This document shows positions 302 through 55,289 of a stretch of DNA of 64,000 bases, piece after piece. Every line of letters starts with the position of its first letter. Within the stretch, counting starts at the first letter, position 1. The position numbers and the translations under genes were made by a program. The DNA is from Amoebophrya sp. A120. Taxonomy: Eukaryota > Protista > Dinoflagellata. Location: the NCBI GenBank assembly GCA_905178155.1, contig CAJINV010000003.1, positions 1,483,557-1,547,556 on the forward strand, in the 5' to 3' direction. The notes beneath the pieces were generated by a model. That model searched no databases. It was given only the letters and a program-made list of their open reading frames with translations, and was not told the DNA's origin.

Positions 302-563
302 TATCAAATGTAAAAATGTCTGGGTCCGGAACAAAACAACTTGTCATGCTAAATCTGAATCATGTAAAAACCTGTGTTGCATGATTACCAAAAGCTGTCC
401 ACTTTTGACCTAATCGAGAGGCAGTTTCTCATGCACGATAGGCATGATAAAACTCTCACAGAATCTGTCATGCTATGTCCCTCGTACCAGACCTCGCGGG
501 CCATGGAAAACCTGCATGACAAGTCTGGCATTCTTCCAGACCCCGACATTTTTGCAATTGATA
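302..563. mobile_element. Introner element, family A (MITE-like, TIR-bounded)
   Basis: Starts TATCAAATGTAAAAATGTCTGGGTCCGGAA and ends TTCCAGACCCCGACATTTTTGCAATTGATA (about 30-bp imperfect TIR). The body closely resembles the copy at 38773. The flanks CAGCC/CGACC do not form a TSD. Confidence 0.9.
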
Positions 564-1296
564 CGACCACCACGACGACGATATTCGGACTGGAAACCAC
601 AACAACGACAATCGCACCGGATGCGCCGTATCCCAACAAAGGTAGAAGTGGTTTTTGTCTATGCTGCTGGTTCTTGTTTGTTTGCGTATATATTCTGTGC
701 ATAGAAGATATCATGGCGCAAGAACTGTTTGCCGCTGCCGGCTATTACTTATGTAGCAAATAATTATTTTCGTAAAGGGAAATCAGAAATCAAAACTGCA
801 CAGATATGCTCCTGACAAAGCCGAACTACTTTCCGGACAATTTGAAACACGAGAACATCATGGTCCCGCTGGAGGCGATGGCCAGCAATCAGCCCACCGT
901 GGACTACCTCTTTGGCTACCGGTACCACACCGATGGGGAAGAGGGGTACCTGGCGCAGGCGGGGAACCTGCGGAAAATCATCTACCGAAACGTATGACTT
1001 GCTCAAACGTTACAATCTCAAACGTTACAATAGAGTCTGGAATTTGTGTTGCATGATGGGCATGACAGACTCGCACAGCGTTCCACCTTTTGCAATACAA
1101 ATTTTCCCAGATTGTAGTGGGGTTTGGAGCTCCGGAACTTGTCATGCGCAGCCCTATGAGAGTTGGCTAGATCATGCTCATCATGCAAGACAAATCTCAG
1201 ATTCTATTGTAACGTTTGAGATTGTAACACCCGAGCGGGTTATAAAACGACCCCCGGTACGGTGTGATGAACGTGATCAACGACCCGCGGAACGTG
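564..1296 (+). pseudogene. Three-exon fragment of an unrelated gene lying between two family A introners
   Basis: Exon 564-641, GT-AG intron 642-803, exon 804-992, introner 993-1244, exon 1250-1296. These join in frame: TTTTTIFGLETTTTTIAPDAPYPNK-DMLLTKPNYF...GNLRKIIYRN-DPRYGVMNVINDPRNV. No resemblance to metacaspase and no stop of its own. Confidence 0.6.
993..1244. mobile_element. Introner element, family B
   Basis: TAT...ATA ends. Long TIR (GTTACAATCTCAAACGTTACAATAGA.. at 1009, reverse complement ending 1228). TSD AAACG at 988-992 and 1245-1249. Removal restores the frame. Confidence 0.9.
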
Positions 1297-1385
1297 TATC
1301 AAATGTAAAAATTTCTGGGTCTGGAAAATGCAACCTGTCATGCTAAATCTGAAGCATGCAAAAATCTGTGTTGCATGATTACCAA
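1297..1385. mobile_element. Truncated family A introner (left end only)
   Basis: TATCAAATGTAAAAATTTCTGGGTCTGGAA...GTTGCATGATTACCAA matches the first about 90 bp of the copies at 302 and 38773. No right TIR. Confidence 0.85.
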
Positions 1386-1386
1386 C

Positions 1387-3064
1387 CAGCCACACCACCA
1401 CCAGCAGGCGCACCACAGACAACGCTGCAGCCACAGACACGTCCTGTCGGGAACAAGATTGGCGCAACAACTACATCTCCGGTGAGCAATGCCGCACTTG
1501 CTCCGTCCACACCCGACGAGCAGAGTAAGACCTCGTTCACAGCGACCGGTAGACGAAAAGCATTCCTGATTGGTATCAACTACTACGGGACGCAGGCGGA
1601 GCTGGCGGGCTGCGTGAATGACGTGGAGAACATATCTAGCCTGCTGATCCGAAAATTTGGTTGGCGGCAGAGCGAAATCCGCACGCTCGACGACGACCGC
1701 GGCCGCAGCTACCCGGCGGTGCACCCCACGCGGCAGCGCATCCTGGAGTCGTTGCAGTGGCTGGTACTGGACGCGCAGCCCGGGGACACGTTGTTTCTTC
1801 TGTACTCCGGCCACGGCGCCCAGGAGGTGGATCCCAACGGATACGAGGAGGACGGAATGAACGACACGATTCTGCTATCCAAGAAAGAAAACTGTGTTAG
1901 TGTAGATGTCTACTTGGAGTGATAGCATGACAAAGCTTTTCTGCATGACAGAGAAAGCCCTCTGGAGTGCACAGCTAGCACATGAAAATACACGCACATC
2001 GAAATAAGAGGACTTCGTGGTTATCTGGCATGAGTAAAAATGTAAAGTGTTCGGCATTTAGTCCATTACAGGCTTGCACTTCTATACACAGTTTTTACTG
2101 TCTTGCATATCTGCCGGTGGATTTTGCGGAGAACGGCATGATCTCGGACGATGTTCTCACGGAGCTCTGCGTCCGCCCGCTGCCCGAGGGCTGCAGTTTG
2201 ACCTGCATCATCGACGCCTGCCATTCGGGAACCGCGCTGGACCTGCCGTGGACGTGGCAGCCGGGCCTGGGGACCTGGCGAGAGGACTGGAACCCGTTTT
2301 TCACGAAGGCGGACGTGCAGATGTTCTCGGGGTGCGCGGACGCGGAAACCAGTTCCGACGGGGGCCGCGATCTGTACGGCCGCCGCGGTGGGGCGTTGAC
2401 AACCGCCTTCTGCGAGATTTTTGCAGCCTCGTCGCAGACCCGCGGGGCGGGCATCGGCTACGATGAGCTGCTGGAGCGGTTGCTGCAGTCCATGCGCGTG
2501 AACGGATTCTCGCAGACTCCGCAACTCAGTTCGAGCCAGGCCTTCGACCAGCGACAGCGCGTCTTCGCCCCTTTTGTTGTACAAAATGCGAGTTCTTCTT
2601 CGTCGCCGAGGCTGCTGCCGCAGCAGAAAAAGATCTGCAGGAACCTCAACAAGAATCCGGAGTACGGTCTCGTTTTCCGCAGAAAGTTCCCGCCGCAGCC
2701 GGCGCCACTCACCGGGTCACCACTGGAGTCGATGCTTATGGACCTCGGTATTGTCCTTTGGTGCCTTTTTTTATTCACGAATGTCGTGCAAGATACGAAG
2801 AGTTCCTCAATTTTTTCACGTCTCTAGAACAAAGTAAGTATTTCGTCGAGCAGGAGTTAAAAATGTTGAAAGTTTCAAATTTTTTACCCCGCATTATCAG
2901 GTATGTTGGTGTTACAAGATGCGGTGGCGGAGGAAATCGGGGGTGCTGTGGTCGACGGTTTGGGGGATGTTTTCGGCGGCATGGGCGACCTGCTGGGCGG
3001 TGCTGGGGACCTGCTGGGCGGTGCTGCGGACGACGTCGCTCAGGACATCGAGGAACTTTTCTAA
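1387..3064 (+). CDS. Metacaspase (peptidase C14B); 5' end uncertain, possibly extending to the ORF at 10-301
   Basis: RRKAFLIGINYYG, LAGCVNDV, LLYSGHG (catalytic His) and IIDACHSG (catalytic Cys). Removing introner 1876-2109 plus one TSD gives DGMNDTILPVDF. GT-AG intron 2748-2900. Last exon ends DIEELF-TAA at 3064. Confidence 0.93.
1876..2109. mobile_element. Introner element, family E, in metacaspase
   Basis: TATCCAAGAAAGAAAACTGTGT ... ACACAGTTTTTACTGTCTTGCATA imperfect TIR. TSD TCTGC at 1871-1875 and 2110-2114. No GT-AG register exists. It interrupts the conserved ILPVDF motif. Confidence 0.9.
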
Positions 3065-4080
3065 ATCGTGTTTCACAGGAATGAATGCAAGCTGATTTGG
3101 TGGGCACTCCACTGTTTACTACGTCCACGTCGTACATTGAGCATGACAGGAAGCGCTAGTTGTGTAGCTGTGCGGTATTCAGTTGATGCTTCCTTGCTCG
3201 CTATCGTGTGGTGGAAGCGTGCTGTACTTAATGTCGTTTCTTGCATCGTGTCGTGCTCGTGCGGCATGTTGAAATATCGCTGTACTTCTACAACGTGGCA
3301 TGATCGTCATCCAAATCTTCTTTGAGAGCAGGCGTCGCGTGTGCAAACCTTCAATTGACAACCTGTACGAATGGATGCACAGCGACATGTAATAAAGAGG
3401 TTCTTCTAGATGAAGTAAATGATGTAAAATACTTGAACATGACAAACGGACACACATTCATATGTTTGAACTTCACCGACGAGTTTCGGTATCTAGATCA
3501 AATAATATTATGGTAAAGCACAGCTCTCGCTCTCAGGAAGTGTGCCGATGTCCGTTCAGTAATTATACCGTAGGCTGGGCCACGACGCTCTATGATCAGC
3601 CATGAGAACCAGGCTGCAGCTGGTGCATGGTTGTAGATATGTACTAGAATTGGAGACTTTTATTTAGTTGAACTTGGTCTTGGACCCTAAGTCGCCGATG
3701 TAGGACGGAGGAGAAGCTGCAGTGCCTTCCTAGCCATCGATCATTCTCAGTCCTCAAGTGATGAAACGTAGTGATTTATGACATAGGTGAACACAATCTG
3801 CCTTCGATGCACACACACCCCCAGCAGGAGCCCTATAGGTTCCACCTACTTGTGTGTCTACAAGAAGAGCCTTAGTTTCCCCTAGGCCTTCTCCAATTAT
3901 TGATTCCCATATGTAGCCTCGTACTGTTTATTTGCTTTATTCTGTGCGCATGCACCCACGCAAAACCTGTGCAGACGTCAATAAACTTTTCATCTCGACG
4001 ATGAATTGTGTATGATTTACCCCGGAAGGAATTAGAAATTTCCCCTAAGCGTACATATCTTTCGAAAATCGTAAAGGAAA

Positions 4081-7000
4081 ATGGACGAGCTTCTTGGCCA
4101 TAGATACGTGCCTGTGGGCCGTGCGCCACCGCCTGATGAAGGTATGATTTGCGTTGACCAGGTAACGGGTCAAATTGTAATCGTACCGGACAACGTCGTC
4201 AAGGTCCTCAAGCAAGCCGAAAAACGGACAGAATTATCCGCTTACAATCGTTCCGCCCTCGCAATGCGCTCTTCGGGAGGAAGTCTGGTGTCTTCATCTG
4301 CGCGGCCCTCCGGATCACACAGTGGCAGCCACATCGTGCAAACGGGAGGCGCCACGAAAAATGCCTTGCCGGCGGCCGAGGAAGCGCAAGACACTGCGGC
4401 GTCGAAGGTGGCCAAGAAGAAAAGAAATAAGAAAAACAAGAAGGCCTCCCCTGATGATGCAGGAGGAGCAGCGACCCCCGGTTCCAGCCCTAGTGCCGAT
4501 CCACCGAAAGCCGTTTTGCAACCTTCAAATATATCACCTGAGGAGAGAGGTGCACGATCTTCAACTGGTGAGGCTGCTGATACAACTTCCAAGGGCTGCA
4601 TGAAGAAAAGCGATTCGTCAAACACACCCGTGCACGACTTTGGCGACTCGTTTTGGCAGAAAGAGGTGGTTGCCATCGAGGAAAACTCCTCCTGGTCCCA
4701 GGAGGTCGTAGCCTCGGGGCCCGGGAAGCATATGTGCTACTACCTTGCCAACCTCGGCTACAATTCGGTTGTGGAAACGTATCCCAACCTGAAACCGCAG
4801 CTGATCCTGGGTAGGAACATCACAAAATTACGGAAAAAGGACGTTACAGGCTACTTTTGCGAGAAAGCGCCGCTCGGCAAAGAAGTCCAGCTGGCGCTAA
4901 AGACCAAAAGCAATAAAACACAGCCGGGAAAAGACGCACAATGGGCCGCTGATCTGAAGTTGGACCTGGGCAAAAACGAGTCCCTGAAACAGTTCGTCTA
5001 CGACCGGACGGAGAAATTTCCGTACGAGTGCGCGGAAGACTTCCTGAAAGACATTTTTTGCCTGCACGAGCCCGGCTCTACTTCGTCCCCGAAAACAAGT
5101 CAACGCGGGGGGGCAACATCCGAGCAATCTGCAGCAGTGGTCACCGCCATAGCAAACGAGGTCTTGTGGTACGATGCTAGCGTGAGGTGCCACTTGCGCG
5201 AAGGACTTGTGGTACTTCTGAACGCGAAAAACTGTCGTTCATTTCGCCTCGCTGTGCTGGAGAAAGTGTGTCACGCTGCCGTTCAAGTATTGCAAGAGTT
5301 TCTACCATCGGCGGCCAAGAAGCAGGAACAGGTTGACAGCGCCACGGAATCGACATCAACCACCGCGGAACAAGTGGCGAGTGACGAGCACGTCGATATT
5401 GAAAATTCAGCAAATAAGGAACTCGTGCAGACTGCGGTGGCTCGGTTTCAGCATTTTTGTCAGTGGCTGCAGCAGGAGCTCGATGATTTTACATTGCAGC
5501 TGTTCGACGACGACGGGAAAGCAGCAAAAGCAGTGCGCACCGAGCTGACCGCTGTCGTTAACATGTTTAAACTCTGCTCCTCGAGTAAGGACAGCACATA
5601 CAGCAATAACTGCGCTGCGGCAGGCGAAAAGAAGGATTGTGCGCAGGGAAAGAACTTTTACTTGCAAACCGAGGACCACCAGCTCGACGTCTTACTCTCC
5701 TGTTCGAGGCAGCTGCTGGGTTCCGCAGTTTGGAAAGGAGTCGGATCGCTCAAGCACCTGATTGCGTTTGTAGAGCAACTTCATGAAGTCGGAGATGTGG
5801 GGGACAGTGTGTGGAAAGAGCTGACATGCTCGTCCGGCTCACTGTCGACATCGACGAGTCTTTCTTCGACAAAACGGGCGGAAGTCGTTGCGGCACCCTT
5901 TGAGGAGGAGGATGATGACTCCGAAGACGAGCAGTCAGTCTCGGAGTACGAAAGCCTCGACGGGGATGCGGACGAAAATGGCCTCTCGTTAGAGCAGGCC
6001 AGAGCTCCTGCTGCAGATGAAGACCCGAGGGCGCCGCAGCGGCAGACTTGTTGCATTAGGCTTCGAAAAAAGTGCGTCGATAGCTCGTTTGGTTCCTTGG
6101 AAAAATCCTCACACTCTTTCCCCGAGCAGTCGCAAACAGCTATTTTTTCCGACCTTCCCCTGCTGCTCCGGTGTTATCAAGGTGCCGCCTACGTTCGAGG
6201 TCTGCGCTCGCCGTTGGCAAAACAGCGTTTTGACGAGCTCCTCGCCTGCTTCGTCGAGGACGAACTAAAAAAGTTGACAGACCTGTCAAAGGTAGCAGCG
6301 GTAAGACCGCATGAGATAGACGAAAGTTCGTTTGCCGCGGACTTTTGGCCTCCTGTCTTGGACTTGATGTCGACAAGGAATGGCGAGCTCTATACGCAGT
6401 TAGACCCGCAGCCGTTTGTTCTTGAAGATCAGCTTCCCATGGCCTCGGAGATTGCAACAACTGAGACTGCTATAGCACAGAGTACGCCTGCCGAGGTGTC
6501 CATCGGTCGCTGTGGCGTCGCCGGTGAAGACAAGAAAGAATTAAACACGGACCGTCTAATCCGCGCCCTGCGTGATCCAATAGAATTCCTCGACCTTTTT
6601 CTTTTCGAAGCTGCGCGCGCGGGCAACCCGTGGATTGTCTCCGTGCCGTTCGCAATGGAGAAGCTGCTGACCAGCTTTCTCCAACACGCTTTCGTCCAAG
6701 ACCTGTTGCGAGATCAGGACGCTGCACTTCGTCTCGGAGCTATGTTGCGCAAAGCTTTGGGTCGACTGCGCGAACGAGAGCCTGGCTGTATGTGTTTCAT
6801 CAAAGCGGCGCTTCCAGATCGACAGGAAACAAGCTACGAGTTCTTGTCTCGACTGCAAGGCGTCTTTGCCCAAACATTTGACAACTTGGGTAGGAGCAGG
6901 TACCTGCATCAGGTCCCGGAAAGTATTTTCGTTTTCCTTCCGCTACTGCTTGATGGCGTCGGAGACGTACACAAGCCCTTGCAGCTACGTGGAGATGTCA

Positions 7001-10000
7001 CCGAGCACCTGACGGGTTGCCTGTGCGATGTGTTAGATTTTTTGGGCCAGCGGGTTTGCACGGACGACGATGAGTTTGGCTTGGATGCCACTAGTCGTAC
7101 CATGGCGAATAAATTTTTGCTGGCAGAAGGAGCGCGTGACGAACAATGCCGTCGAAATTATCGAGCTGCTGTTGGCAAGCTTGTGCAAGCATCGAGAGTG
7201 CATTGCGACACAATTTTCACTGCGTCACTTCCGGTGCGCGAGGTCGCGGAGAAGAGTCGAAAGTACTCTGTCGCAGGACAGCTGGACCGAAATTGCGGAA
7301 AGCTCGTCGACGCTCATGCTGCTGTCACCGGCTGCATCCATGCATCTTCGCCCGCCGCGCTGACAGTCGCAGACACAGCTGAAGAATTCGTCGACACGAA
7401 AGCGCTGTTAAGCTGCTCATGGGGATTCAAACTTGAAGTGGTTTTGCCCGTGCTGGATGCTCTTGTGCAGACGTGCGCCGACCGGGTGCAAGCGGTCTGC
7501 ATCTTTCTTCAACGTGAAGAACGACGCCAGCAGCAGCTCTTTTTAGACGCGTTCAAGGAAGCTGAAAAACTGGAGAACAGAATCCGCAACACGATCCTGC
7601 AAGACGGAATCGGAGCGCTTTTGAAGGGGCACCTTCTCGGCCGAACTTACGAAGCGTACTGCGCAACCCGGGACAGCCGACCTCTTCCGTGCGATCCCGA
7701 TGCGGAGCCGATCTTCGCCGTGATGACACTAGGCAAAATGACGGAGCGCAAAGCGGCCGAGGCCACAGGGAAGAATCCGCTTGCCAAGAGCATGGCAGCA
7801 GCAGCCGAGGACTCCAATGCAGGGCGGACGTCCCGTGACCTGCGCGTGGCGTTCGAGCGACATTGCAAGCCGAAGCTGATTTTCGACCAGCAGGGGCAGT
7901 GTACCGGGTTGACGCCGCTGAAGCTCCTCTGTCTACTCTGCACACACGCAGCCACGGCAACGGCAGAGCAGTTTCTCGATTTTGTTGAGGATACGACTGT
8001 CGAAGAACTGGAAGTAGTCGGAGGTGTTGAAGATGAAGATCTAGAGGAGCGCGGGGCATTCAACGCACAGAAATTGGTAGAGGATGTGGCTGCTGCGCAG
8101 CAATCCTCGAAGGATGACGAGCCTGCAAAGGAGCAAGCCTTCACAGGAGAAAATCTGCACACCAAGGATGTGGTTGAGGGGCGCGAGCCTGCTGCGCCGA
8201 CACAGGTGGAATCAAAAGTGGTTAGTGCAGAGCCCTCGTCTTCAGTACAACCACTGGCGCGCGCAGCTTCGGCAACAGAAGTCGATCAGACGGAGAAAGG
8301 GATTGCTTCCTCTGTTGAAAATAACTGGATTCAGAGAGGCGTCGGCAAAAAGGATTTCTACTCAGAGGAGGGGTATGCGCTCGGAATCATCAACGACAGC
8401 AACCACATCGTCGTCAAAAATAATTTTCGCCATGAGTCTTCGCGACGATATCTTGAAGACAACAATATCAAGTGCTTCGAGTCGGACATGCACATGAAAA
8501 ACGACTCGCCGCGCCTGATATGGGTCATGTTCACCATGGCGGAGACAAACATCAAAGACACCAGGTTACAGCGGCCAGGTTCCTACGTACAGTTTCAGAT
8601 AGACATGTCGCGTGCCCCGATCCTGGAACAGAATTCACCGCACGGAAAGGCAACGTATTTTGCGATCAACAGCAGTGTTTGGAGGGCTTCCTGGCAATAC
8701 CAGAGCTACGAGTGGGTGCTGCAGGAACCTACTGTTCACCATCGCTCACAGACCCGTTTGGACCGGAAACAGAGCGACATGCTGAACGAGGAGCTTTTCG
8801 CAGATCACACTGACGTCGCAGCGACCGGGAAAGAGCCGACAAAGCGCGCTTGGGCATGCGTGTTTCACGACATGAAGTTTGCGCGCGAAGACTTCCGGCA
8901 GCAACACGACGGCCGCTCTTTGCTGGGACAAATCGCGTACCGCGCAGACGACTCGTTCGTGAAGAAGGTCGGCTTTGTCAAGCCGTTGGGGCCCCGCGAG
9001 GGCGCTGAGTTTCCCGAGGTCAAAACCATGCTCGGAAAAAACAAGATGGAGAACTTCGGCAAAAGTGCGCAGTTCATTCACGTCGACCTCAAGGGCCTGG
9101 CAAGGCACGCGCGGCTGGAACCGATAAAGGGAGACGTGGTTTCCTTCACTCTGGATGAGGACTCGAAGAAAGTCAGCGAGGTGGTGAGCGGAAGAAAGAA
9201 ATACCTTCCCGCACGCGATCTGCACGTTGTCCGCTATAAGTCCACAATAAACTCCGGAGCGAGAACCGGCTCCGCGTCATCTCCCATGCGTGGCTTGCGG
9301 CATCTTCTGAAGCTACTCGAGCCCGTATATACGAAGTCTTTGACTAGTACTTCGGTAGCTGATTTTGAGAAGGAACTCGGCTGGTACAGCTTGGTATCCG
9401 AAGCACTGCAGCAGTTTCAGGATGTGGCGTCGAGTCCGGAGGACGCGACTACAACGAACAGGACCCGCAGACGAGCGAATACTGCGTCCAGAGGGGATGC
9501 CAGCACCAGAAATGGCCCAGGAGACGGGGACCTGAGTGACTTCAGCGACGCAAGTAGTGATGCGTTTGACGAAGAAGACGATGCGTTCCTGGGTCCCGGT
9601 GACGAAGATGTGTCCATGCGGCAACGCAGTCAGGCCGAACTCGAGGCGTTGCGCAAAAGAACCGCTCTAATCACCTCCGGCGAGAGCGGAGCCGCTTTTT
9701 TCCAGCTTTGTGTCGAAGAACTGTTGCAGTTGCTCGACGTTTCTTTTCACTTTCCTCTGACAGCTGATGAAATGGCAGAAGTCGGCGCGGGCAACCAGGA
9801 TTTGTATTTGCAGGGAGGTGGTGGAGGAACGTTGGGCGCCACCAGTTACGTGACAAGCAGGTCGTCTTCAGTTCTTCCGGCACGATCTTCAGGCGCAACA
9901 ACTGTATGGGGCGTAGCTCCGTCTGTGGTTGGTGCAACGCTTGCTGAGGAGCGAGCGAGGCTGGTGAATGCAATCCTTGGTCTGATGATGTCTTTTGAAC

Positions 10001-13000
10001 GCGAGTACCGTCAGCGCGTCGGGGTGACGGTTAAGGCCCCCGGTGAGCCACAAAATCCGAACATCGACCCTCGCCAATGTCTCGATGCAACCCGTCACAG
10101 TTCGCTTCTCGTGACATTTTTGTCCGCGTTGACGCATTTGGCGGAATCTCGTCAGAGTGCCTCCGCCGCGCAGCTGGATCTCGTCGCTCGTGCCTTAGCT
10201 AGGTGCTTCAAGTTGAAAGAGAAGGCAAGTCCAAATAGCAGCCCCGCCGACTCGGCGTTCCAAAAGCCTCGGGGGGACCGAGGGCAGCAAAAGCAGAGTG
10301 CGTTGTCGAAGTCCAAGTCGAACAACAAATCCAGCGGATCTGCCCTGCTCCTGAGAAGTTCCTCATCATCTTCACAGCAAAACGCCTCTCATCTTGCCGG
10401 TTTGAGTGTCGTTGGTCTTACGGGCGTATCCGAGCTGTTTCAGTTTGTGGTGGCCAACGTGCAGATTTACGACCCGAATCTCATCGAGGGCTTTCGCGCG
10501 CTGTTCTCCTCCGGGCCGCTGCGCGCCCTGCAGACGCGCGCAGAGACCGCCTTGTTGTACGACGTGCACGGCTTCCTGGAGCAGGCACAGAAGACCCACC
10601 TGAACGCCATGAGGTTTCTCGCGCAGCGGGCGCAGGTCGCGCAGGGAACCCGCGAAGAATTGGAGGAAAAGCACTGGTCAGAGTTGCCGCTAATCCCTAC
10701 CCTAGACGAACTTCGGGACGACCGACTGGGGAATCTACCGGTAGTGCCCGACGTTCGGGCGGCCGTACGGAAGTTCATGAACGAAAGCAGAGCGGGCGCG
10801 GACAGCGCACGAGGAGAAACTACTTCCATAATCGGTCTGCGGGGATACGAGAGCTATGAGCACTACATGAACACGATTCTTCGACAGCTGCGGCAAGATA
10901 CCTTTTCGAGTCTGCGGATGGGCGTGTCGCGTTACATCCGCAGCCGCACCGTGGATTTCGGGCTCATGCGCATGTACAACCCGCAGTTCGTCGGCTTTCA
11001 CTTCCGCGACCAGGACACCATCTCGGTCGTGCTGAAGGTGCAGGCGATGAAGGATAGTCGGACCGGGGACTACAACAAGTACTGGGCGGACAACGGCGGT
11101 ATGATGTACGGCAATTTGATCGTTATCTCCCTAGACGGCGATTTTGAAGACGAGGGTCGGCTGGTGTACGCTCAGGTAAGCTGGTCGGACAAGGAGATCT
11201 TGCGCACAGAGGGAATTTTCTTCGCGGAAATTCTACCGCGGGAAATCACGGGTAGCGAACGGAGTCCGATGGAACAGGTGATCGCGCTGATTGCGGCGCT
11301 CTCCAGTGGCGACAATGAAGCGGTGCTTGCGGAAAGTCCGGCGTACTACAAGGCTTTTTCTCCTGGCTTGAAGTGTCTGCAGGGAAAAAAACAATTGGAA
11401 AATCTGCCGCCGTTCGCCTCCGAGTTCATTTTCGGAACGAAGAGCTATGCCGGACCTCATCTAGTTCCGGGTCGAGAATCTGGACCACGCAGTGGGGTTT
11501 TTCCTGCTTGGTCGACCCCAACAGAGCCTGCGCCCTTCTACCTGAATCAATGGCCCGGAGCGACCGTCGAGATCGGACTTTTAGATCAGCAAGCAACGTC
11601 GGAAGACGGCTCTGCCGTCGAGTCAACGTCGCGTCGCATGCGGGTCGACGAATGCGTGCCGGTGTTGCTGAGTAAAAAGGGAGAAGAAGGTCGAAATGCG
11701 AACGATCGCAGTCTCGACAGTAATGTTGCCACTGCGTTGGATGAATTTCAGCAGCACGCGGTGGGCGTCGTTCTCTCTCGCGCCATCGCGGCCATCCAGG
11801 GCGCGCCGGGATGTGGGAAGTCTCATCTAGCGGTGCTCCTGGTGCGCCTCCTGGCGAGTCTGCGTGACAAGAACGGGGCGCCGGTCAGGCTTCGCTTCCT
11901 GATCGTTACCTACAAAAACAAGGCATTGAACGAGCTCGCCGAGGCGTTGCTGAAGTACTTTCCGAAAGACCTGGTGCGCGTCGGGTCGGGCGGGACGGGC
12001 GAGGACAGTTCGGAGTTGCTCGAATCGCGAAACCTGAACCTGCTCAAATCGGCCTACCAGCAGACGGAAGAAAGTCACGCTTTCAACGAGGAATGGAAGC
12101 GGGCGGACAAGCGGCTGGACGTTGTGTCTACGGAGATGGAGGAGTTGGCAACCCGTTTGGTCAAAGCTCGCTTCTGGTCGATTTCGCTCTTCGTGCTGCG
12201 GAGTCGGCCGGGCCAGCTGGAACAACTGCTGCGAGGCGCCGGCGAGAAAGGGCATCTGCAGATGAGTGTCAACGAGCTCAGCAAGTGCCTGACAGAGGCC
12301 GAACAGTGGGTGACGCGGATGCGACAGATCCGGAACAAGGACCTGACTCTGGCAAATTTTCTGGATTGCGAGGCCGAATACCTCAAGGATCCGGTGTTGC
12401 ACAAAACACGACTGGACCTGTATGCGTGCCTGTCTGACGCGCTGGAGAAATGGGTGCCGCAAATGCAATGGTTTCAGGCTGTCGCCGAGCGGGTGCGTCA
12501 GCATAAGGTCATCGGCGGACGCAAACTGGACCTGCAGAACGATCGCAAATTCAAGAGCCTCGTGGTAGAGTTGAAAGACGGAAAAAGAACACGAGCGTTC
12601 GAGGAAAGGAACGCAGCGCACGAACTGCAAGAATCTTCCGGCTCTAACAGTGCATCGTCAACGTCGCTTGCTGCACAGAATTACGCGTCCAATGGTGCTT
12701 CCCTCGAGGATGACGACGAAGAAGATTTCCTAAAAGAAGCGCAATACCAGCGAGACGCGGGAGAAATGATGGACAACAACGTGTTAAGCGTGGAGCCGCG
12801 ACGTGGACGCAGGTACAACAACCAGGGTCAGGGTGTGCGCGGCAACCGCATGACCTTTAAGGATTGGGAGGATCACAAGAAGCACGTCATTTTCCTCGAT
12901 GCGAGCACGTCTGACGCAATTCGATACGCGCCCGAGGTGACCGAGTACTTCGCCTCGCGGAAACCCAACCTGCTGAAGCGGAAGGATCTTTGGTCCCTTG

Positions 13001-16000
13001 ACAACGGGGATCGGGTGTTGCTCGTGCAGTTTCTGTTGCAGGAACGCGTCGATGAAATTGTGGAGAAACTGATCGTGAAGGAGCGGGAGTATACACAGCT
13101 GAAGGAAGAAAGGAAGAGAATTGCGGACGAACAGCGCGCGGCGGTCTTCCGCGCCAACCAGATCTGTGTCACGACCATCACCGGTGCAGCCATCTACGCG
13201 AAAGAGATCGAAAAAGCGGCTTTCGACGTGGTGCTCGTCGAAGAGGCCGCGGAGGTGCTGGAAGGCCAGCTGGTCGCGATGCTGAACGGCAGCGTGAAGC
13301 ACCTCATCATGATCGGGGACCACTACCAGCTACCGCCTCCGGTGCAGTCGTCGGTGCTGCGGGAGCGGTTTTTCTTCGGACGAAGTCTAATGCACGAGCT
13401 GATCGATATGTGGCAGGCAATGGAGCTGCTGTCGCCCGGAGGTCGTGGGGGAGCTGGAGCCACCGCAGCAACGTCATCAAATGTCTGCATCAGCGGGGAA
13501 GCGATTTTGATGCGACAAAGCCGTATGGATCCGGAGATCGCGAAGTACTTGCGTGCCGACCGTAGCGGGGGTCGAAATGAGGCAAGATACCCGAAGCTGA
13601 AGGACAATCTGAACATCGTTGGCAAGTACACTCGCGAGGCACTTCCCCTTGTTTATCCGGTGGAAAAACGCGACGCGGTGTTTATCGCTGATTTTCTACA
13701 CCACGCACCTGTTTTTTTCTGGGACACGCCACTGAAGGGAACCTGGTGCGACGAGCGGCAGGAGCTCAGCTTCAAAAACCATGAAGAAGCCGAGCGCCAA
13801 CTTGCAGTGTTCATGCTGATGGTATCCCAGGGAATTCCGGCCCACAAGATCACGATCACGGCGCCCTACCGTGCCCACATCCGCTACATCAAAACGGAAC
13901 TTATGCCAAAGGCGAAGAAGGCGCGAAGGGACTATTTGATGTGCGCGTGGTCGATCGCTGGACTTGAACTTGCCGAGGAAAGGGAGGCCCGGTTTGCAGC
14001 ATTAGACGAAGATCCGCTTCTGAAGTGCTTCGACGAGGTAGTGTGTACACCGCTCGACGGGTACCAGGGCAACCAAAATGACCACATCATTCTTGCGCTC
14101 GTGCGGTCCAACTCGACTTTGGACTGTGGCTTCTTGAAAAAGGAACCAGAAGGCATTTGCCGCCGCACTGTGGCGCAATCGCGAGCGCGCAAGTCCTGGA
14201 TCATTATTGGCAGCGCTGACTGTTTTGGGCACGACCGCTGTGGAGGTGGCAATTCGAAAGCAGCCCGACGCGGATCGAAAGACAAAATTTCCATTGCCGA
14301 GGAACCATCGGAGCCAGAAAAAAATGGCGGATCATTTCGCAGCAATTCCGTTTGGGGTGCTGGTCTCATTGATCATCTACGAAAGGACAATCGGGTGTCG
14401 GAGACCTTGCCGCTCAAATGTCCGAGGCACGACCCTCCTGTGCGAAACTCGAACCCGGCTTCTTGTGGTGAAGAAGGCACGACTGGAGAGGCAGCTATTG
14501 CTTCTGGTGCTAATGCTAAAACTCCATCGTTTTTTCCCGCCTGCGCCAGCGAGCTCAGTGATCCCGTCATCTGTCAGGACTTGCCAGAGGTGGAGTCCGA
14601 CCAAGATCCACTGTCGTTCACGAACCGATTGATTTGCACGAAAATTTGCAATAGAGAGCTACCCTCCTGCGGACACGCCTGCAGGCGGTACTGTCACGCC
14701 GGGGAATGCGATGCGCGATTCTGCAGGGAGATCGTGTTGACGCCGTGTGCGAAGTTTCCGGACAAGCATCTCGCGCTTCGCCGAGTGTGCAACGCGCCGG
14801 AGGTCGTGTGCCAGGCCGAGGTGCAATTCACTTGCAAAAAAGTGCGAAGTGACGGCGGAAGACAGGTGTCTTGCAACACAACGCTAACACGTAAGTGTTA
14901 CCAGAACGGAGACCTGGTACAGCACCTGGTCGACTTTCCGTGCAAAAAATGCACTCGCCCGATTGAAGCGCCCTGCGATACAAAGCCAGCAGACCTGCGT
15001 TGCAAGGAAAACTGCCAAAGGAAACTCGCATGCGGACATGCCTGTCCGCTTCTTTGTTGGGAGGAGTGCAGAAAAGCAAAGTGCCAAGTCAGGGTCACGC
15101 AAAAGTGCGCCGCGGGTAAACACACCATAGAAATGCCGTGCTGGCGAACGACCGGCTTTGGGAAGGTGTCCCAGCTGCAGTTTATTTGTCGGGCGGAAGT
15201 TGCTTTTACGTGCCCGGTGTGTAACCGCAAGCAAAAAAAGTTCTGTGGGGAATCAGAAACGCACTGCAACTTCCCCTGCGGGAAACTTTGCAGTGCGGGG
15301 CTGCATGCCTGCACTGCCCGCTGCGGAGAATGCGCCGCCACCGGCACCTGTTTGGCAAGTGGCGAATGCCGCAAGTGTGCGGGCGACGAACTGCAGTACC
15401 AGGTGGATCGCATTTTCAGAAACGCTGCGGGCTCGAACGCGCCCAACAACACGCGGCGGCAATTTCGCTCTTTCAAGCTGTCACAGCTCAGTTTTCCAGA
15501 GCCCGCGGTCTACAACTTGTGGTTGCGGTCCTACGGTGGAGCAAATTATGCGAGAGACCACCACGACCAAGAGGCGAAGACGCCGGTGCACCTGGAAGAC
15601 ACCATTCAGGAGATCAAGGACCTGCAAAGAAGCGACATTTTTGGTGGTGCGGCCGGTGAAAAACGGCTGCTGGACCTCCTTCCGAAGGACTTGGACGTCG
15701 TCCAAGTCAGCTTCGGTATGTGCGTCGCCATGGACCCGCAGTTGCTGTACGTGTTGCGACGTTGCTTCGGTCCGGAGCAGAAGATCAGCGTGCGTTTCTT
15801 TCGCACGAAGGACGATTTCAACAAGGTTTCCACCGCGAAGTTTCAGCAGGTCGTGCCAAGCGAAAAAGATACGTTCGAATTCGAAGAAATCCAGCTCCGG
15901 CCGTTCCCCGCCACGACAAAGCCCGGCCTGGTGTCCCGGCGTCCAGAGGTAGATCAACATGATCCCACGCACGCGATACTGGACTCGGGGAATATTCTGC

Positions 16001-16482
16001 ACTTTCATGAGTTGGCGGCTCTGCAGACCGTGCGAGTGGGCGCCAGTACGTTTACGACCGAGAAGAGGCGCACCAATTTTCGCTACCTGCTGTGGGTGTT
16101 TCGCAGTTTGATCCGGCGCTATCCGAAATGTGAGATCAAGATCCCCATCTATCGGGACAAGGCGGACGCGTTCAAACGCGACCACGTAGGCATTTTCAAC
16201 GAGATGCTGCGATTGGAGCACGAGCGGTGCGTCCAGGCAAAGGTTTCGCCGCGGACGGAACGGGAGTTGTTCACCATCGTGCGACACGGTCAGGACGTGG
16301 ACCTGTACTGCCTGAAATTGGCGGTGCTTTACAGCAGTCCGGCGACGCGCGTGGCGATCGTCACCAACGACGCCTACCGGGAGCATCGCGAAAATTTTCC
16401 GAGTTTGAAGACCAATTTCGACACGGGTAAGCTCTTGGTCCCGTTCACCATCGTGCCGGAGGAGGAAGTCGCGTTGTTTTAG
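4081..16482 (+). CDS. ZNFX1-like UPF1-family (SF1) RNA helicase with NF-X1 zinc fingers and a C-terminal Regnase/Zc3h12a-type NYN (PIN) RNase domain, 4133 aa
   Basis: ZNFX1-type pre-helicase blocks (LPLIPTLDEL, GYESYEHY..LRQD, MMYGNLIVISLD). Walker A GAPGCGKS (about 11800), VEEAAEV, IGDHYQLPP, RQSRM, DGYQG, VAQSRAR. Cys/His-rich CGHxC repeats at about 14630-15380. ILDSGN...DVDLYCLKLA...IVTNDAYREH at about 15970-16390. Confidence 0.9.
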   Translation: MDELLGHRYVPVGRAPPPDEGMICVDQVTGQIVIVPDNVVKVLKQAEKRTELSAYNRSALAMRSSGGSLVSSSARPSGSHSGSHIVQTGGATKNALPAAEEAQDTAASKVAKKKRNKKNKKASPDDAGGAATPGSSPSADPPKAVLQPSNISPEERGARSSTGEAADTTSKGCMKKSDSSNTPVHDFGDSFWQKEVVAIEENSSWSQEVVASGPGKHMCYYLANLGYNSVVETYPNLKPQLILGRNITKLRKKDVTGYFCEKAPLGKEVQLALKTKSNKTQPGKDAQWAADLKLDLGKNESLKQFVYDRTEKFPYECAEDFLKDIFCLHEPGSTSSPKTSQRGGATSEQSAAVVTAIANEVLWYDASVRCHLREGLVVLLNAKNCRSFRLAVLEKVCHAAVQVLQEFLPSAAKKQEQVDSATESTSTTAEQVASDEHVDIENSANKELVQTAVARFQHFCQWLQQELDDFTLQLFDDDGKAAKAVRTELTAVVNMFKLCSSSKDSTYSNNCAAAGEKKDCAQGKNFYLQTEDHQLDVLLSCSRQLLGSAVWKGVGSLKHLIAFVEQLHEVGDVGDSVWKELTCSSGSLSTSTSLSSTKRAEVVAAPFEEEDDDSEDEQSVSEYESLDGDADENGLSLEQARAPAADEDPRAPQRQTCCIRLRKKCVDSSFGSLEKSSHSFPEQSQTAIFSDLPLLLRCYQGAAYVRGLRSPLAKQRFDELLACFVEDELKKLTDLSKVAAVRPHEIDESSFAADFWPPVLDLMSTRNGELYTQLDPQPFVLEDQLPMASEIATTETAIAQSTPAEVSIGRCGVAGEDKKELNTDRLIRALRDPIEFLDLFLFEAARAGNPWIVSVPFAMEKLLTSFLQHAFVQDLLRDQDAALRLGAMLRKALGRLREREPGCMCFIKAALPDRQETSYEFLSRLQGVFAQTFDNLGRSRYLHQVPESIFVFLPLLLDGVGDVHKPLQLRGDVTEHLTGCLCDVLDFLGQRVCTDDDEFGLDATSRTMANKFLLAEGARDEQCRRNYRAAVGKLVQASRVHCDTIFTASLPVREVAEKSRKYSVAGQLDRNCGKLVDAHAAVTGCIHASSPAALTVADTAEEFVDTKALLSCSWGFKLEVVLPVLDALVQTCADRVQAVCIFLQREERRQQQLFLDAFKEAEKLENRIRNTILQDGIGALLKGHLLGRTYEAYCATRDSRPLPCDPDAEPIFAVMTLGKMTERKAAEATGKNPLAKSMAAAAEDSNAGRTSRDLRVAFERHCKPKLIFDQQGQCTGLTPLKLLCLLCTHAATATAEQFLDFVEDTTVEELEVVGGVEDEDLEERGAFNAQKLVEDVAAAQQSSKDDEPAKEQAFTGENLHTKDVVEGREPAAPTQVESKVVSAEPSSSVQPLARAASATEVDQTEKGIASSVENNWIQRGVGKKDFYSEEGYALGIINDSNHIVVKNNFRHESSRRYLEDNNIKCFESDMHMKNDSPRLIWVMFTMAETNIKDTRLQRPGSYVQFQIDMSRAPILEQNSPHGKATYFAINSSVWRASWQYQSYEWVLQEPTVHHRSQTRLDRKQSDMLNEELFADHTDVAATGKEPTKRAWACVFHDMKFAREDFRQQHDGRSLLGQIAYRADDSFVKKVGFVKPLGPREGAEFPEVKTMLGKNKMENFGKSAQFIHVDLKGLARHARLEPIKGDVVSFTLDEDSKKVSEVVSGRKKYLPARDLHVVRYKSTINSGARTGSASSPMRGLRHLLKLLEPVYTKSLTSTSVADFEKELGWYSLVSEALQQFQDVASSPEDATTTNRTRRRANTASRGDASTRNGPGDGDLSDFSDASSDAFDEEDDAFLGPGDEDVSMRQRSQAELEALRKRTALITSGESGAAFFQLCVEELLQLLDVSFHFPLTADEMAEVGAGNQDLYLQGGGGGTLGATSYVTSRSSSVLPARSSGATTVWGVAPSVVGATLAEERARLVNAILGLMMSFEREYRQRVGVTVKAPGEPQNPNIDPRQCLDATRHSSLLVTFLSALTHLAESRQSASAAQLDLVARALARCFKLKEKASPNSSPADSAFQKPRGDRGQQKQSALSKSKSNNKSSGSALLLRSSSSSSQQNASHLAGLSVVGLTGVSELFQFVVANVQIYDPNLIEGFRALFSSGPLRALQTRAETALLYDVHGFLEQAQKTHLNAMRFLAQRAQVAQGTREELEEKHWSELPLIPTLDELRDDRLGNLPVVPDVRAAVRKFMNESRAGADSARGETTSIIGLRGYESYEHYMNTILRQLRQDTFSSLRMGVSRYIRSRTVDFGLMRMYNPQFVGFHFRDQDTISVVLKVQAMKDSRTGDYNKYWADNGGMMYGNLIVISLDGDFEDEGRLVYAQVSWSDKEILRTEGIFFAEILPREITGSERSPMEQVIALIAALSSGDNEAVLAESPAYYKAFSPGLKCLQGKKQLENLPPFASEFIFGTKSYAGPHLVPGRESGPRSGVFPAWSTPTEPAPFYLNQWPGATVEIGLLDQQATSEDGSAVESTSRRMRVDECVPVLLSKKGEEGRNANDRSLDSNVATALDEFQQHAVGVVLSRAIAAIQGAPGCGKSHLAVLLVRLLASLRDKNGAPVRLRFLIVTYKNKALNELAEALLKYFPKDLVRVGSGGTGEDSSELLESRNLNLLKSAYQQTEESHAFNEEWKRADKRLDVVSTEMEELATRLVKARFWSISLFVLRSRPGQLEQLLRGAGEKGHLQMSVNELSKCLTEAEQWVTRMRQIRNKDLTLANFLDCEAEYLKDPVLHKTRLDLYACLSDALEKWVPQMQWFQAVAERVRQHKVIGGRKLDLQNDRKFKSLVVELKDGKRTRAFEERNAAHELQESSGSNSASSTSLAAQNYASNGASLEDDDEEDFLKEAQYQRDAGEMMDNNVLSVEPRRGRRYNNQGQGVRGNRMTFKDWEDHKKHVIFLDASTSDAIRYAPEVTEYFASRKPNLLKRKDLWSLDNGDRVLLVQFLLQERVDEIVEKLIVKEREYTQLKEERKRIADEQRAAVFRANQICVTTITGAAIYAKEIEKAAFDVVLVEEAAEVLEGQLVAMLNGSVKHLIMIGDHYQLPPPVQSSVLRERFFFGRSLMHELIDMWQAMELLSPGGRGGAGATAATSSNVCISGEAILMRQSRMDPEIAKYLRADRSGGRNEARYPKLKDNLNIVGKYTREALPLVYPVEKRDAVFIADFLHHAPVFFWDTPLKGTWCDERQELSFKNHEEAERQLAVFMLMVSQGIPAHKITITAPYRAHIRYIKTELMPKAKKARRDYLMCAWSIAGLELAEEREARFAALDEDPLLKCFDEVVCTPLDGYQGNQNDHIILALVRSNSTLDCGFLKKEPEGICRRTVAQSRARKSWIIIGSADCFGHDRCGGGNSKAARRGSKDKISIAEEPSEPEKNGGSFRSNSVWGAGLIDHLRKDNRVSETLPLKCPRHDPPVRNSNPASCGEEGTTGEAAIASGANAKTPSFFPACASELSDPVICQDLPEVESDQDPLSFTNRLICTKICNRELPSCGHACRRYCHAGECDARFCREIVLTPCAKFPDKHLALRRVCNAPEVVCQAEVQFTCKKVRSDGGRQVSCNTTLTRKCYQNGDLVQHLVDFPCKKCTRPIEAPCDTKPADLRCKENCQRKLACGHACPLLCWEECRKAKCQVRVTQKCAAGKHTIEMPCWRTTGFGKVSQLQFICRAEVAFTCPVCNRKQKKFCGESETHCNFPCGKLCSAGLHACTARCGECAATGTCLASGECRKCAGDELQYQVDRIFRNAAGSNAPNNTRRQFRSFKLSQLSFPEPAVYNLWLRSYGGANYARDHHDQEAKTPVHLEDTIQEIKDLQRSDIFGGAAGEKRLLDLLPKDLDVVQVSFGMCVAMDPQLLYVLRRCFGPEQKISVRFFRTKDDFNKVSTAKFQQVVPSEKDTFEFEEIQLRPFPATTKPGLVSRRPEVDQHDPTHAILDSGNILHFHELAALQTVRVGASTFTTEKRRTNFRYLLWVFRSLIRRYPKCEIKIPIYRDKADAFKRDHVGIFNEMLRLEHERCVQAKVSPRTERELFTIVRHGQDVDLYCLKLAVLYSSPATRVAIVTNDAYREHRENFPSLKTNFDTGKLLVPFTIVPEEEVALF

Positions 16483-17370
16483 GTCCGGGCCCGAAAGAAA
16501 AATTACGGGATACAAGAGGAGCATCATTCAACTTTTTTCTCGTGTGCATTTTCCGACAACAGAATCGGATCCGATTCCGTTCCATATCCCATGGCAAGAA
16601 AGGTGCAGTAGTCTCTTGCACTTCGCAACATGATTAAAACTGAAAACAAAAATGATATGTCACTCACGTGACCTCATTCATATCTCGTCAACAAGGAGAG
16701 CTTAAACATATTCGCGCACTTTCCTTGCTGCTCTGCATGTATCTATGTACGGAATTTTTTGAAAGAGTTAGAGTGGATCGTCTCAGCGATGATTTCGCAG
16801 AAGCCACTGCTCAGGCGTTTCATGATAAAACAAGGAAATATGACTTGGACGATTGAAGTGCGGAAATCGCATTTAGACACCACTTATATCAGAATTCGCA
16901 TCGTCACTCGGGACGGATTCGTAACGCAGACAGGCACAGTCGCAGATGATTTTCTCGAACTACTGCACGGGTGTAGTCGTGTTGCCTCTGAGTCTGATTA
17001 TCAGATGGAGGCTGGAAATCGAAATAAAACCTTGACTCCGTGTCTTTCGGTTATGTGATCCGTGCGTGTTGACTGACATTGATATAAATATACCGGTTCG
17101 TTTTTTGTGTTGGCTACTACTGAGTATTAGTGCCAAAGAAGCTTGCAACACTTGTTTTTTGCTTCTCCTTGTCGTAGTATCATCATGTCCACCACGTGCG
17201 GCAAAAGCTCTCGAATTAGAAGTGAAGTCGTCCCACGCAGAACTTCGATAGGAATCAGGATTGCCTTTCGAGAAGAGGAATTGGATTGAGTGCTGGCGTT
17301 AATTGTTTGCGTTAAGTACTCGATTGAATCGAGCCTTGATGTTCGATTGAGTGCTTCGTCTTCATTTGCT

Positions 17371-17580
17371 GACCTCGGCGGAGATTGGGAAGCTCCGCGG
17401 AGGTCGGGGAGGTCAGCAACCTCCGCGGAGGTTGGGAAGCCTCCGCGGAGGTCGGCAACGTCCGCTTAGGTCGGCAACCTCCGAGGAGGTCGGCAACCTC
17501 CGCGGAGGTTGGGAAGCTCCGCGGAGGTCAGCAACCTCCGCGGAGGTCGAGCAGGTCCGCGGAGGTCAGCAACCTCTGCT
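17371..17580. repeat. Tandem array of about 10 palindromic units (about 19-20 bp; core ACCTCCGCGGAGGT)
   Basis: Repeated GGTCGGCAACCTCCGCGGA / GGTTGGGAAGCTCCGCGGA variants, directly visible in intergenic DNA. Confidence 0.9.
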
Positions 17581-18075
17581 GGGGCAGCTCCCGTCCGTGT
17601 TTCCGGTCGCGCTTTCTCTTTTTTCTCATGCATTTATTGGGGAGCCCCAGGCCCAGGTCCAGCTCGTGCTTGCGGAAAACGAGCGCCCCTGTATTTTGTT
17701 GTGTGTGACTTGGCTTCAAAATGTTTTCGAGTTTGAGCGGGTCGCGAAAGGCGGGTGACTGTAGTAGCCTGTGTTGAAATCAGGGGTGGTGGGCCGCTGT
17801 GTGTCTCAACAGAGTTTCATAGTGCTTTCGAGTTTTGACTGTGAAAGAGTGGGCAGTTGTTAGTCGTGGCCGGGACAGAGTGTAAGAAACAAGATAGAAG
17901 ATGAAAAGTGAAAGAAGTAGCAGGAGAGGGGGACAGGTCGTGTCTTCTTCGTCACTGGTTTAGTCTGCTTGATGAGAGACGTCGACATCGCATTGACCAT
18001 GATGATTCCCATTATTGTTGCAAAAGAATGCAGTGCAAGCCACAGCTTGAAATTGACAGCCAGTTTGAAATCAGC

Positions 18076-19572
18076 ATGGCGCGCACGGCTTCGCCCTGCC
18101 GCGTTTCCGTGGGAACGTCGACGCTGCAGTCTATTTGCCTCTCGTCCTCTTCATCGTGCATGCGCGCGAATGCGGCCCTCGTCGTAAGCAAGGCTGGGAC
18201 AACAGCAGGCAGGCCCGCGCCTCCCAATGCAAATCCACCGCATGCCAACGTGCATAACGTGTTGACGTTCACGACGGGACCAGTGAATGCGCAAAGCTTC
18301 GCAAACACGGACGAATTGCGAGGGCTAGCCACGTTCGCGCTAGTGGACGACATCCAGGCCCGGGTGTGGCGTTCGTACCTCCCGGAAATTGTTGCGGAAG
18401 CGAGACACCTCCGGCACCAAGCACTCGAGACACCGTTGTGCCGCCTCTTCTCTCTGCGTCATCAGCGGGACGAGCATCTCCATCGGGAGTACTACGTCAC
18501 GGATTCTGAAGAAGGGTCGAGTTATGTGTCTTCCAGCTACGTGGGCTCTCCGGTGCACCAGCCCTCTTCTCCGGCTAATCAGGGCTCGGCGACGGTCCTC
18601 GGCCACGAAGCAGAAGAACCTCCTGCAGCGGAAGGAAGAGTCATATTCGGAGCAGGAGAGAAATCAGGATGCCGCAGCCCGGGTTTGGAAAGTGGCGAGC
18701 GGTTTTTGGGTGATGAAGAACGAGCTGCTGACGTTGATGTTCCTGCTCCCGAACAAGGGACGGACCCGTTACCAACAGTCGGTCCGCCACATAGACGCGC
18801 ATCGGATACGGAGCAGATGACAGGATCAAGAAGCGCTTTCGTGGGTGCGACGTGTGTCGAGCCTGCAGCTGCATCTTGGGAGTTTGCACACCTCGAACTC
18901 ACTTCGCCAGCAGCACGAAACGGGATCGGAGGCAGCGCCGGTCCTTTCTCCAACACGAGCACGACGAAGGGTCTGGATCTCGCCTGCCTGGTCGCGCTGA
19001 GGGAAAAGTTTTCCGTGCGGGAGCAGAAGGAAGCTGTGAACCAATACGCCGATCCAGTTTTCCGCAAGGAGCGGTACGCGATCGAGAATTCGCCGTATGC
19101 CAGGGCGCTGATTCGTTCATCCCCATCTGCTCGAGCAGCGCCGGGTCGTGGTAGCGAAGCTTCTGAAGTTTCTGAAGAACCAGGTTGCGAAAACCTAGAC
19201 CAACCCCGCACGGAATCGGATGCACAACTACGTGCCAGCAATAAGCTGCCTGTTCGGACACGCACAAGCAGTCAACGGGAAGACGCTGCCGCAAACAGTG
19301 CGTACCCGACGTCCTGGTCCGAGATACTCTCTTCACCTGTTCACGTCGATTTTGGTACAGCGCATTCATCTTCGAAACTGAGGCGGACGCGCGTAGACCT
19401 GGACTGCAGCGTTTGCAGAAGTGTCCTATCTGTTCGGGAAAATTCCGTGTCAAAAAAGATGGTCTGCCTGCCGTGCGGTCACGCAGTGTGCGAAGGAGCT
19501 TGTTTGCAAGAGATACTGGATCTGTTTCCGGGGCATGACCGGTTAGTGTGCCCGTCGTGCGGCTCGTGCTGA
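18076..19572 (+). CDS. RING-finger protein (C-terminal RING-HC-like), putative E3 ligase
   Basis: C-terminus CSVC...LPCGHAVCEGAC...CPSC. The ORF is open from 17908 (GTG); in-frame ATGs at 18028 and 18076, so the start is uncertain. Confidence 0.75.
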   Translation: MARTASPCRVSVGTSTLQSICLSSSSSCMRANAALVVSKAGTTAGRPAPPNANPPHANVHNVLTFTTGPVNAQSFANTDELRGLATFALVDDIQARVWRSYLPEIVAEARHLRHQALETPLCRLFSLRHQRDEHLHREYYVTDSEEGSSYVSSSYVGSPVHQPSSPANQGSATVLGHEAEEPPAAEGRVIFGAGEKSGCRSPGLESGERFLGDEERAADVDVPAPEQGTDPLPTVGPPHRRASDTEQMTGSRSAFVGATCVEPAAASWEFAHLELTSPAARNGIGGSAGPFSNTSTTKGLDLACLVALREKFSVREQKEAVNQYADPVFRKERYAIENSPYARALIRSSPSARAAPGRGSEASEVSEEPGCENLDQPRTESDAQLRASNKLPVRTRTSSQREDAAANSAYPTSWSEILSSPVHVDFGTAHSSSKLRRTRVDLDCSVCRSVLSVRENSVSKKMVCLPCGHAVCEGACLQEILDLFPGHDRLVCPSCGSC

Positions 19573-54772: not shown

Positions 54773-55289
54773 TCGACGACCGTAATGATCGATCCATCGT
54801 TTCAGGAGCGATAAATTGCTGATTGCTCCTCCCGCATAGCCGAGCTACGTGCGCCTGCTTTTGCGCTGCGGTTTGTGCCCACTGCCGCAATCGGTTACCC
54901 CGTTTGCGGTAGACCTGCTGGCAGCGGCGATGATGGGGACAAGGCAAAACGAAAAAAGTCGCTTCACAAATTTCAGCCACTTGAAGTGTTTCTTGGACAA
55001 CGCGCACCCACTCAGCCGCGAGTGCGAAAATAGATTCAAACTACGTATGCGAACTATATCAAAGATGCAGCCGGCGCGCAAGCAGGCAGTGGGCGTCCGT
55101 CTCTCGCACATCATTCGGATGTGCTTAGCAGTTGAAGAGGCGGATGACTTGAAGGTCGGCGCTACCTTACTCCCAGGCGGCGAGGGGATTCTGATGAAGA
55201 AAGCGGTCGGCTTCTTCATCGCTGCATGGTTTGCCATGCTGCGTTTGGACGACATCGGTTCAACTAAATGGACTCCGCACTAAGTTTTC

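Follow-up and report, generated by a model that had tools for sequence, protein, structure and literature searches.

What does a ZNFX1-type RNA helicase do when the chain ends in a nuclease-like domain instead of a ubiquitin ligase? The question is raised by a gene in a 64,000-nucleotide window of Amoebophrya sp. A120 (contig CAJINV010000003.1, positions 1,483,557 to 1,547,556 of the forward strand; coordinates below are those of this window), which encodes a protein of 4133 amino acids, P0001. A sequence-only reading of the window had proposed that P0001 joins a ZNFX1-like helicase in cis to a Regnase-type NYN/PIN ribonuclease. Our analysis indicates that the architecture is real, conserved and transcribed, and that it is a new arrangement within the known ZNFX1 family. 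By analogy with characterized systems, we favour, at a probability of roughly 0.6, a ZNFX1-family helicase that lacks the ligase tail, carries a PRORP/Regnase-type PIN end, and would act as a single-chain helicase-endoribonuclease destroying foreign or aberrant RNA.

The gene occupies a single stop-free frame (4075-16482, forward strand; first ATG at 4081) and requires no intron. A 13,121-base contig from run X1 is identical to the window and ungapped over its whole extent, as is a contig from run X2 of the same sample, which has no differing letters (extents in Table 1); X1 and X2 possibly derive from the source culture. Such contigs reveal neither the strand nor the true transcript ends, and rare isoforms are dropped from them. 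That the runs represent RNA is a guess, but X1 and X4 (a second sample of X1's study) skip introns of the metacaspase gene upstream (joints 1870>2110 and 2746>2900, GT..AG), whereas run X6 is unspliced across 1409-17544. Five pieces of X4 span 12087-17286, leaving one gap, and an estuary metatranscriptome from a separate study yielded three identical 151-base matches, two of them within the tail. None of the aligned runs contains a splice joint inside the open reading frame. A gene-model artefact, whether two merged genes or a splice before the tail, is therefore ruled out by the stop-free frame and the RNA contigs, which run through the tail with no earlier end. The helicase and the probable nuclease domain thus do lie in cis.

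The helicase assignment made in the sequence-only reading was borne out. Pfam detected AAA_11 (E 3.5e-22) and AAA_12 (E 5.9e-17), and among 21 solved-structure sequence matches the best was human ZNFX1 (9q9z), with 104 bits over five collinear stretches, compared to 48 for Aquarius and 45 for UPF1. By sequence, the core is of the superfamily 1B (SF1B, UPF1-like) type and is nearest to ZNFX1. An EEAA Walker B motif and an unusually large 1C insertion are ZNFX1 traits (10.1101/2025.10.14.682297); P0001 has both, with 480 residues separating Walker A from Walker B (263-532 in 11 relatives). The Pfam ZNFX1 domain PF25396 did not match P0001, and a home-made 1B profile gave 5 bits, a weak positional match. 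A quick tree restricted to ZNFX1-like rows, with no outgroup, placed P0001 and its A25 relative P0002 on a long branch (100) beside P0003 (94); this may be a long-branch join and was not used. The PADLOC profile for MkoA matched the helicase core at E 3.8e-38, a match limited to the shared SF1B core, and no PADLOC family matched the tail.

Downstream of the core, the chain continues into a Cys-rich stalk that aligns to human ZNFX1 residues 1388-1450 and contains 42 Cys, 35 of which are kept in strain A25. The NF-X1 zinc fingers reported earlier stand as this stalk, although Pfam zf-NF-X1 gave only one sub-threshold match (E 0.015-0.035). The 156-residue middle domain that follows occupies the place of the Miz domain and helical bundle of ZNFX1, and matched neither Pfam nor Atlas entries nor Miz. 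In human ZNFX1, an armadillo domain lies ahead of the helicase; the long N-terminal region of P0001 contains no Pfam family at threshold. Cold-shock domains at residues ~1430-1700, suggested by eye from a likeness to P0003, were not supported: P0001 scored -0.9 bits, below shuffles.

The tail motifs quoted in the sequence-only reading are present at the C-terminal end: ILDSGN at 15976-15993 (residue 3966), DVDLYCL, within QDVDLYCLKLA, at 16294-16314 (4072), and IVTNDAYREH at 16357-16386 (4093). In both structural alignments PRORP ranked first, with PRORP, ZC3H12C and Rae1 falling within about one Z unit of each other. The tail is a probable PIN (NYN) domain as modelled, for which "PRORP/Zc3h12a group" is a safer name than the original "Regnase-type", because the fold ranks PRORP equal to or above the Regnase-family domains. 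Pfam detected neither a CCCH finger nor pentatricopeptide (PPR) repeats in P0001. Judged on features and on fold alike, the tail most resembles NYN proteins of giant viruses. A foreign origin was not supported by composition: the tail has a GC fraction of 0.568, like the remainder, and third-position GC climbs smoothly from 0.59 to 0.76 with no break. Separately, PRORP/Zc3h12a-like proteins whose Asp-Asp site is complete are encoded on four viral contigs (L004:730-1773, L053:889-1401, L070:889-1410 and L129:801-1289), three of them from giant-virus bins by record name.

The acidic residues of Regnase-1 are D141, D225, D226, D244 and D248 (PMC5499597), and ZC3H12C binds Mg via D271, D355, D356 and D374, with D356 alone making direct contact (PMC8136824). 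Motif position and four viral comparators (chosen by motif and so biased) place D3968, D4074 and D4097 at the first, third and fourth acidic positions and E4101, an Asp in A25, at the fifth; the tail residues would correspond to the Regnase numbering accordingly. An Asp is found after strand 1 (D3968), and another after strand 4 with an acid four residues on (D4097, E4101).

Several observations weigh against a nuclease of this type. RNase_Zc3h12a (PF11977) matched the tail at 13.6-13.8 bits (E 0.05), below its gathering cut-off of 23, and did not match the A25 tail. Support for the fold was modest, every fold test being weak; single-sequence prediction was useless (predicted local distance difference test score, pLDDT, 35.6), and profile comparison to giant-virus-type PRORP-like proteins, which used 5 of 120 pattern loci picked by motif and hence biased, was not significant. 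Finally, the adjacent Asp-Asp pair after strand 3 is absent: both species have Asp-Val-Asp, in which the second acidic position is V4073, a conserved D4072 stands immediately before it, and the second Asp of the pair is kept. The acidic pattern attributed to Zc3h12a/N4BP1-type nucleases is consequently recognizable at four positions but departs from the full canonical form, Val taking the place of the pair's first Asp. A metal site is predicted from D3968, D4074, D4097 and E4101, with D4072 possibly replacing the missing Asp; given the fold, endoribonuclease activity is likely.

Table 1. Features of the P0001 gene, in window coordinates (residues of P0001 in parentheses).
Feature	Position	Strand	Evidence
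Single-exon open reading frame P0001, ZNFX1-type helicase plus probable PIN/NYN tail	4081..16482	+	frame scan, gap-free RNA contigs
Unspliced RNA contig extent	3826..16946 (X1); 3818-16852 (X2)	.	runs X1 and X2
N-terminal region, ~2190 residues	4081..10650	+	Pfam scan, no family at threshold
ZNFX1-type block ahead of P-loop, including 1B barrel position	10675..11196	+	low-score alignment to human ZNFX1 448-564
SF1B helicase core	11716..14247	+	Pfam, structure-sequence matches, motif positions
Walker A	11800-11823 (2574)	+	motif position
Acidic run in 1C insertion, candidate auto-inhibitory "plug" helix, unconvincing alignment	12706..12729 (2876-2883)	+	alignment to relatives
EEAA Walker B	13240-13251 (3054-3057)	+	motif position
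Motif III	13312-13344 (3078)	+	motif position
Motif VI	14170-14193 (3364)	+	motif position
Cys/His-rich NF-X1-like zinc-finger stalk	14413..15378 (3445-3766)	+	Cys count, alignment
Conserved middle domain separating the stalk from the tail (identity to A25, 49%)	15448..15915	+	alignment to A25
Probable PRORP/Zc3h12a-group PIN (NYN) domain	15952..16479	+	Pfam, motif, alignment, structural comparison
Acidic site residues	15982 (D3968), 16294 (D4072), 16300 (D4074), 16369 (D4097), 16381 (E4101)	+	motif position, alignment

In human ZNFX1, the C-terminal end is a two-part E3 ligase composed of Miz/Z-RING and RZ (10.1101/2025.09.05.674436). With profiles built from relatives, 13 of 25 proteins gave a Miz match, among them five held-out relatives at E <= 6.4e-07, and 13 of 25 gave an RZ match, which was weak in three cases. 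Both domains were missing from P0001 and P0002 by these profiles, with negative RZ scores and no Pfam match; the tail therefore replaces the Miz/RZ ubiquitin ligase rather than being added to it. C. elegans ZNFX-1 likewise has no RZ (10.1101/2025.10.14.682297). A Pfam scan of 17 of 19 ZNFX1 hits, which omitted the shortest two from fungi (P0004 and P0007), revealed nine RZ tails, three triple AAA+ tails (P0006, P0008, P0012), one PARP tail (P0003) and one DEAD-type helicase tail (P0018), and no PF11977 match at E <= 0.001. The C-terminal tail of ZNFX1 therefore varies. In P0003 the helicase is also preceded by a weak cold-shock match (E 0.0018), and Miz/RZ is replaced by two PARP stretches, another swapped tail. 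P0018, from Gregarina, retains Miz and runs on into its DEAD/Helicase_C module, either a true fusion or a merged gene model.

The closest relative of P0001 is P0002 (CAD7954185.1, Amoebophrya sp. A25; E 7e-189), in which the second RecA lobe is followed by stalk, middle domain and tail, as in P0001, and which ends at the same point; its record starts at motif III, probably as the result of a split gene model. Identity between the two is 53.5% in RecA lobe 2 (116/217), 39.5% in the stalk (121/306), 48.9% in the middle domain (66/135) and 49.1% in the tail (82/167). These values match the average identity between Amoebophrya genomes, 48.2-51.2% (PMC7789003), and so the tail appears to be under ordinary constraint. 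Word searches of long proteins (1673 candidates) and of proteins of 411-2000 residues (7343 candidates) found no relative of the tail, nor did a search of 52 stretches from viral contigs; 1.84 billion representatives yielded only P0002 and a repeat protein, P0021. Proteins of 2001-2272 residues were covered by the helicase-relative search alone, and stand-alone short forms by the 1.84-billion-representative search alone; these blank results do not prove absence. A scan of metagenomes returned three stretches out of 298, each carrying a distant ZNFX1-like gene, the first of which (L001) has an RZ tail. The second, L002:1-3510, is a divergent gene whose stalk is followed by an unassigned C-terminal domain, and the third, L003:5006-18128, also divergent, continues in the next frame with additional fingers and repeated AAA+ modules.

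How might such a protein work? The sequence-only reading took animal ZNFX1 to act in double-stranded RNA sensing and RNAi inheritance; recent structures of human ZNFX1 broaden this, portraying an auto-inhibited 5'-3' helicase in which single-stranded RNA displaces an acidic plug and a rigid stalk joins the E3 ligase (10.1101/2025.10.14.682297). By analogy, RNA entering the helicase groove of P0001 would lift auto-inhibition, ATP-driven 5'-3' translocation would open stem-loops and strip proteins, and the rigid zinc-finger stalk would position the predicted nuclease to cut the opened strand, so that the output would be RNA cleavage in place of ubiquitin tagging. Unwinding by UPF1 licenses Regnase-1 cleavage (PMC7145602), and HELZ2 couples helicase and RNase within one chain (PMC10516660). 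Whether the targets would be viral, transposon-derived or faulty transcripts is a guess.

The valine that both species carry in the Asp pair could instead mark a dead or weak PIN domain, a pseudo-nuclease that binds RNA ends or partners while the helicase serves as a scaffold holding RNA in granules, in the manner of worm ZNFX-1. The RNase_Zc3h12a family includes members with anywhere from 0 to 5 acidic residues (PMC5499597), and the worm protein both protects RNAs and stores them (PMC9276528). We nonetheless consider this unlikely: four Asp and the fifth acidic position are retained across ~50% divergence, including the Asp that binds metal directly in ZC3H12C (PMC8136824). More doubtful still is the idea that the tail lacks a PIN fold altogether and that its motifs and Rossmann-like model arose by chance. 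The weakness of the fold tests and the near-absence of relatives among 1.84 billion representatives would fit that view, but independent methods converge on one group and the three motifs are correctly ordered on the correct strands and helices, leaving it only a very slim chance.

Other explanations accept an active nuclease and differ in its employment. The tail might start small-RNA amplification with an RDE-8-like initial cleavage of a silenced transcript, leaving the helicase to feed the resulting fragment to a tailing enzyme and then, as in the ZNFX-1/Hrr1 step, an RNA-dependent RNA polymerase. RDE-8 is a Zc3h12a-type NYN protein. The RDE-8 endonuclease and ZNFX-1 share a pathway in C. 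elegans, and S. pombe Hrr1 partners the polymerase (PMC9276528); the passages searched in the genome paper on Amoebophrya do not mention RNA interference (PMC7789003), and we rate this role improbable. A housekeeping role in processing or surveillance, as a PRORP-like structure-specific cutter of tRNA-like folds, stem-loop introners or mis-spliced transcripts, seems highly improbable. PRORP's first rank, the long inverted arms and non-canonical ends of the neighbouring gene's introns, and the unusual splicing machinery proposed in the genome paper (PMC7789003) speak for it; the tie with ZC3H12C and Rae1, the failure to detect PPR repeats or other PRORP parts, and the immunity and silencing functions of ZNFX1 relatives of known role speak against it. 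A single-chain helicase-endoribonuclease acting on foreign or aberrant RNA thus remains our preferred reading.

The closest parallels help to define what is distinctive. Like human ZNFX1 (9q9z), C. elegans ZNFX-1 and S. pombe Hrr1, P0001 combines an SF1B helicase, EEAA Walker B, large 1C insertion and zinc-finger stalk; unlike them, it has the 156-residue domain and probable PIN tail in place of Miz/Z-RING and RZ, and a 2190-residue N-terminal region within its 4133 residues, unmatched by PF25396. With the PRORP/RNase_Zc3h12a group (PRORP1/2, Regnase-1, ZC3H12C, N4BP1, KHNYN) it shares the predicted fold and acidic motif order, but it falls below the Pfam threshold, has Val for one paired Asp and no detected CCCH or PPR element, and is fused to a helicase. 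Regnase-1 and UPF1 likewise pair a Zc3h12a-type endonuclease with an SF1B helicase (PMC7145602), but as two proteins, whereas P0001 is one chain, uses ZNFX1 instead of UPF1, and would couple them only by inference. HELZ2 is an interferon-induced single chain in which RNA helicase domains and zinc fingers work with a ribonuclease to degrade structured RNA (PMC10516660); its nuclease is an RNB 3'-5' exonuclease and its helicase domains are two in number, in contrast to the one ZNFX1 helicase and probable PIN endonuclease of P0001. Relatives P0003, P0006, P0008, P0012 and P0018 also join helicase and stalk to another C-terminal enzyme. Prokaryotic PhoH2 (PIN plus helicase; PMC5499597) and Mokosh MkoA (matching only in the SF1B core) pair an RNA helicase with a nuclease, but P0001 is eukaryotic and has a zinc-finger stalk.

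Elsewhere in the window, metacaspase gene(s) (368-3065; Pfam Peptidase_C14) with spliced RNA joints lie directly upstream, and a partial repeat of 266-391 occurs there at 1297-1432. Introner-like introns at 988-1244 and 300-566 have non-canonical ends, are removed in RNA contigs, and contain long inverted arms (993-1065/1172-1244, 84%; 302-334/531-563, 85%); the introner-like intron region is very deeply covered in the run that looks like DNA. Downstream are a tandem near-palindromic 19-nucleotide unit in ~9-12 copies (17364-17603) and a reading frame covered by RNA contigs (17905-19572) with a RING-like Cys pattern at its end and no Pfam match at E 0.001. A NEMF/Rqc2-like gene (41929-45929) has NFACT-R and NFACT-C in two frames and is probably split by an intron. 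The frame at 55284-56231 has no Pfam match at E 0.001 and presumably resembles a retroelement RNase H domain, a likeness judged by eye. A 913-residue frame (58734-61475) has an N-terminal part that looks tetratricopeptide-like by eye and a phospholipase/carboxylesterase domain by Pfam.

Our literature search, which lay outside most subscription papers and PIN-classification supplements, found no description of a ZNFX1-helicase/NYN-PIN fusion and no UPF1-like helicase fused to NYN, and returned unrelated matches only for ZNFX1 in dinoflagellates. This agrees with the earlier view that the architecture is undescribed. Helicase-RNase fusions already exist (HELZ2, PhoH2), and only two sequences of the present architecture are known.

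ZNFX1 has lately been shown to convert RNA sensing to ubiquitin signals. A bolder and quite tentative view is that ZNFX1 is an RNA-sensing platform with swappable tails, on which the ligase of Amoebophrya gave way to an active endoribonuclease, possibly acquired from a giant virus, to yield a one-protein sensor-nuclease against RNA invaders. If true, Regnase-UPF1 chemistry would be hard-wired into one chain, and the swap from ligase to nuclease would show that the helicase and stalk form a modular sensor with an exchangeable output, as relatives with PARP, AAA+ or helicase tails also suggest. P0001 would then offer a single-chain system in which to study the licensing of Regnase-type cleavage by an SF1B helicase, and Syndiniales parasites would have a first candidate RNA-defence protein.
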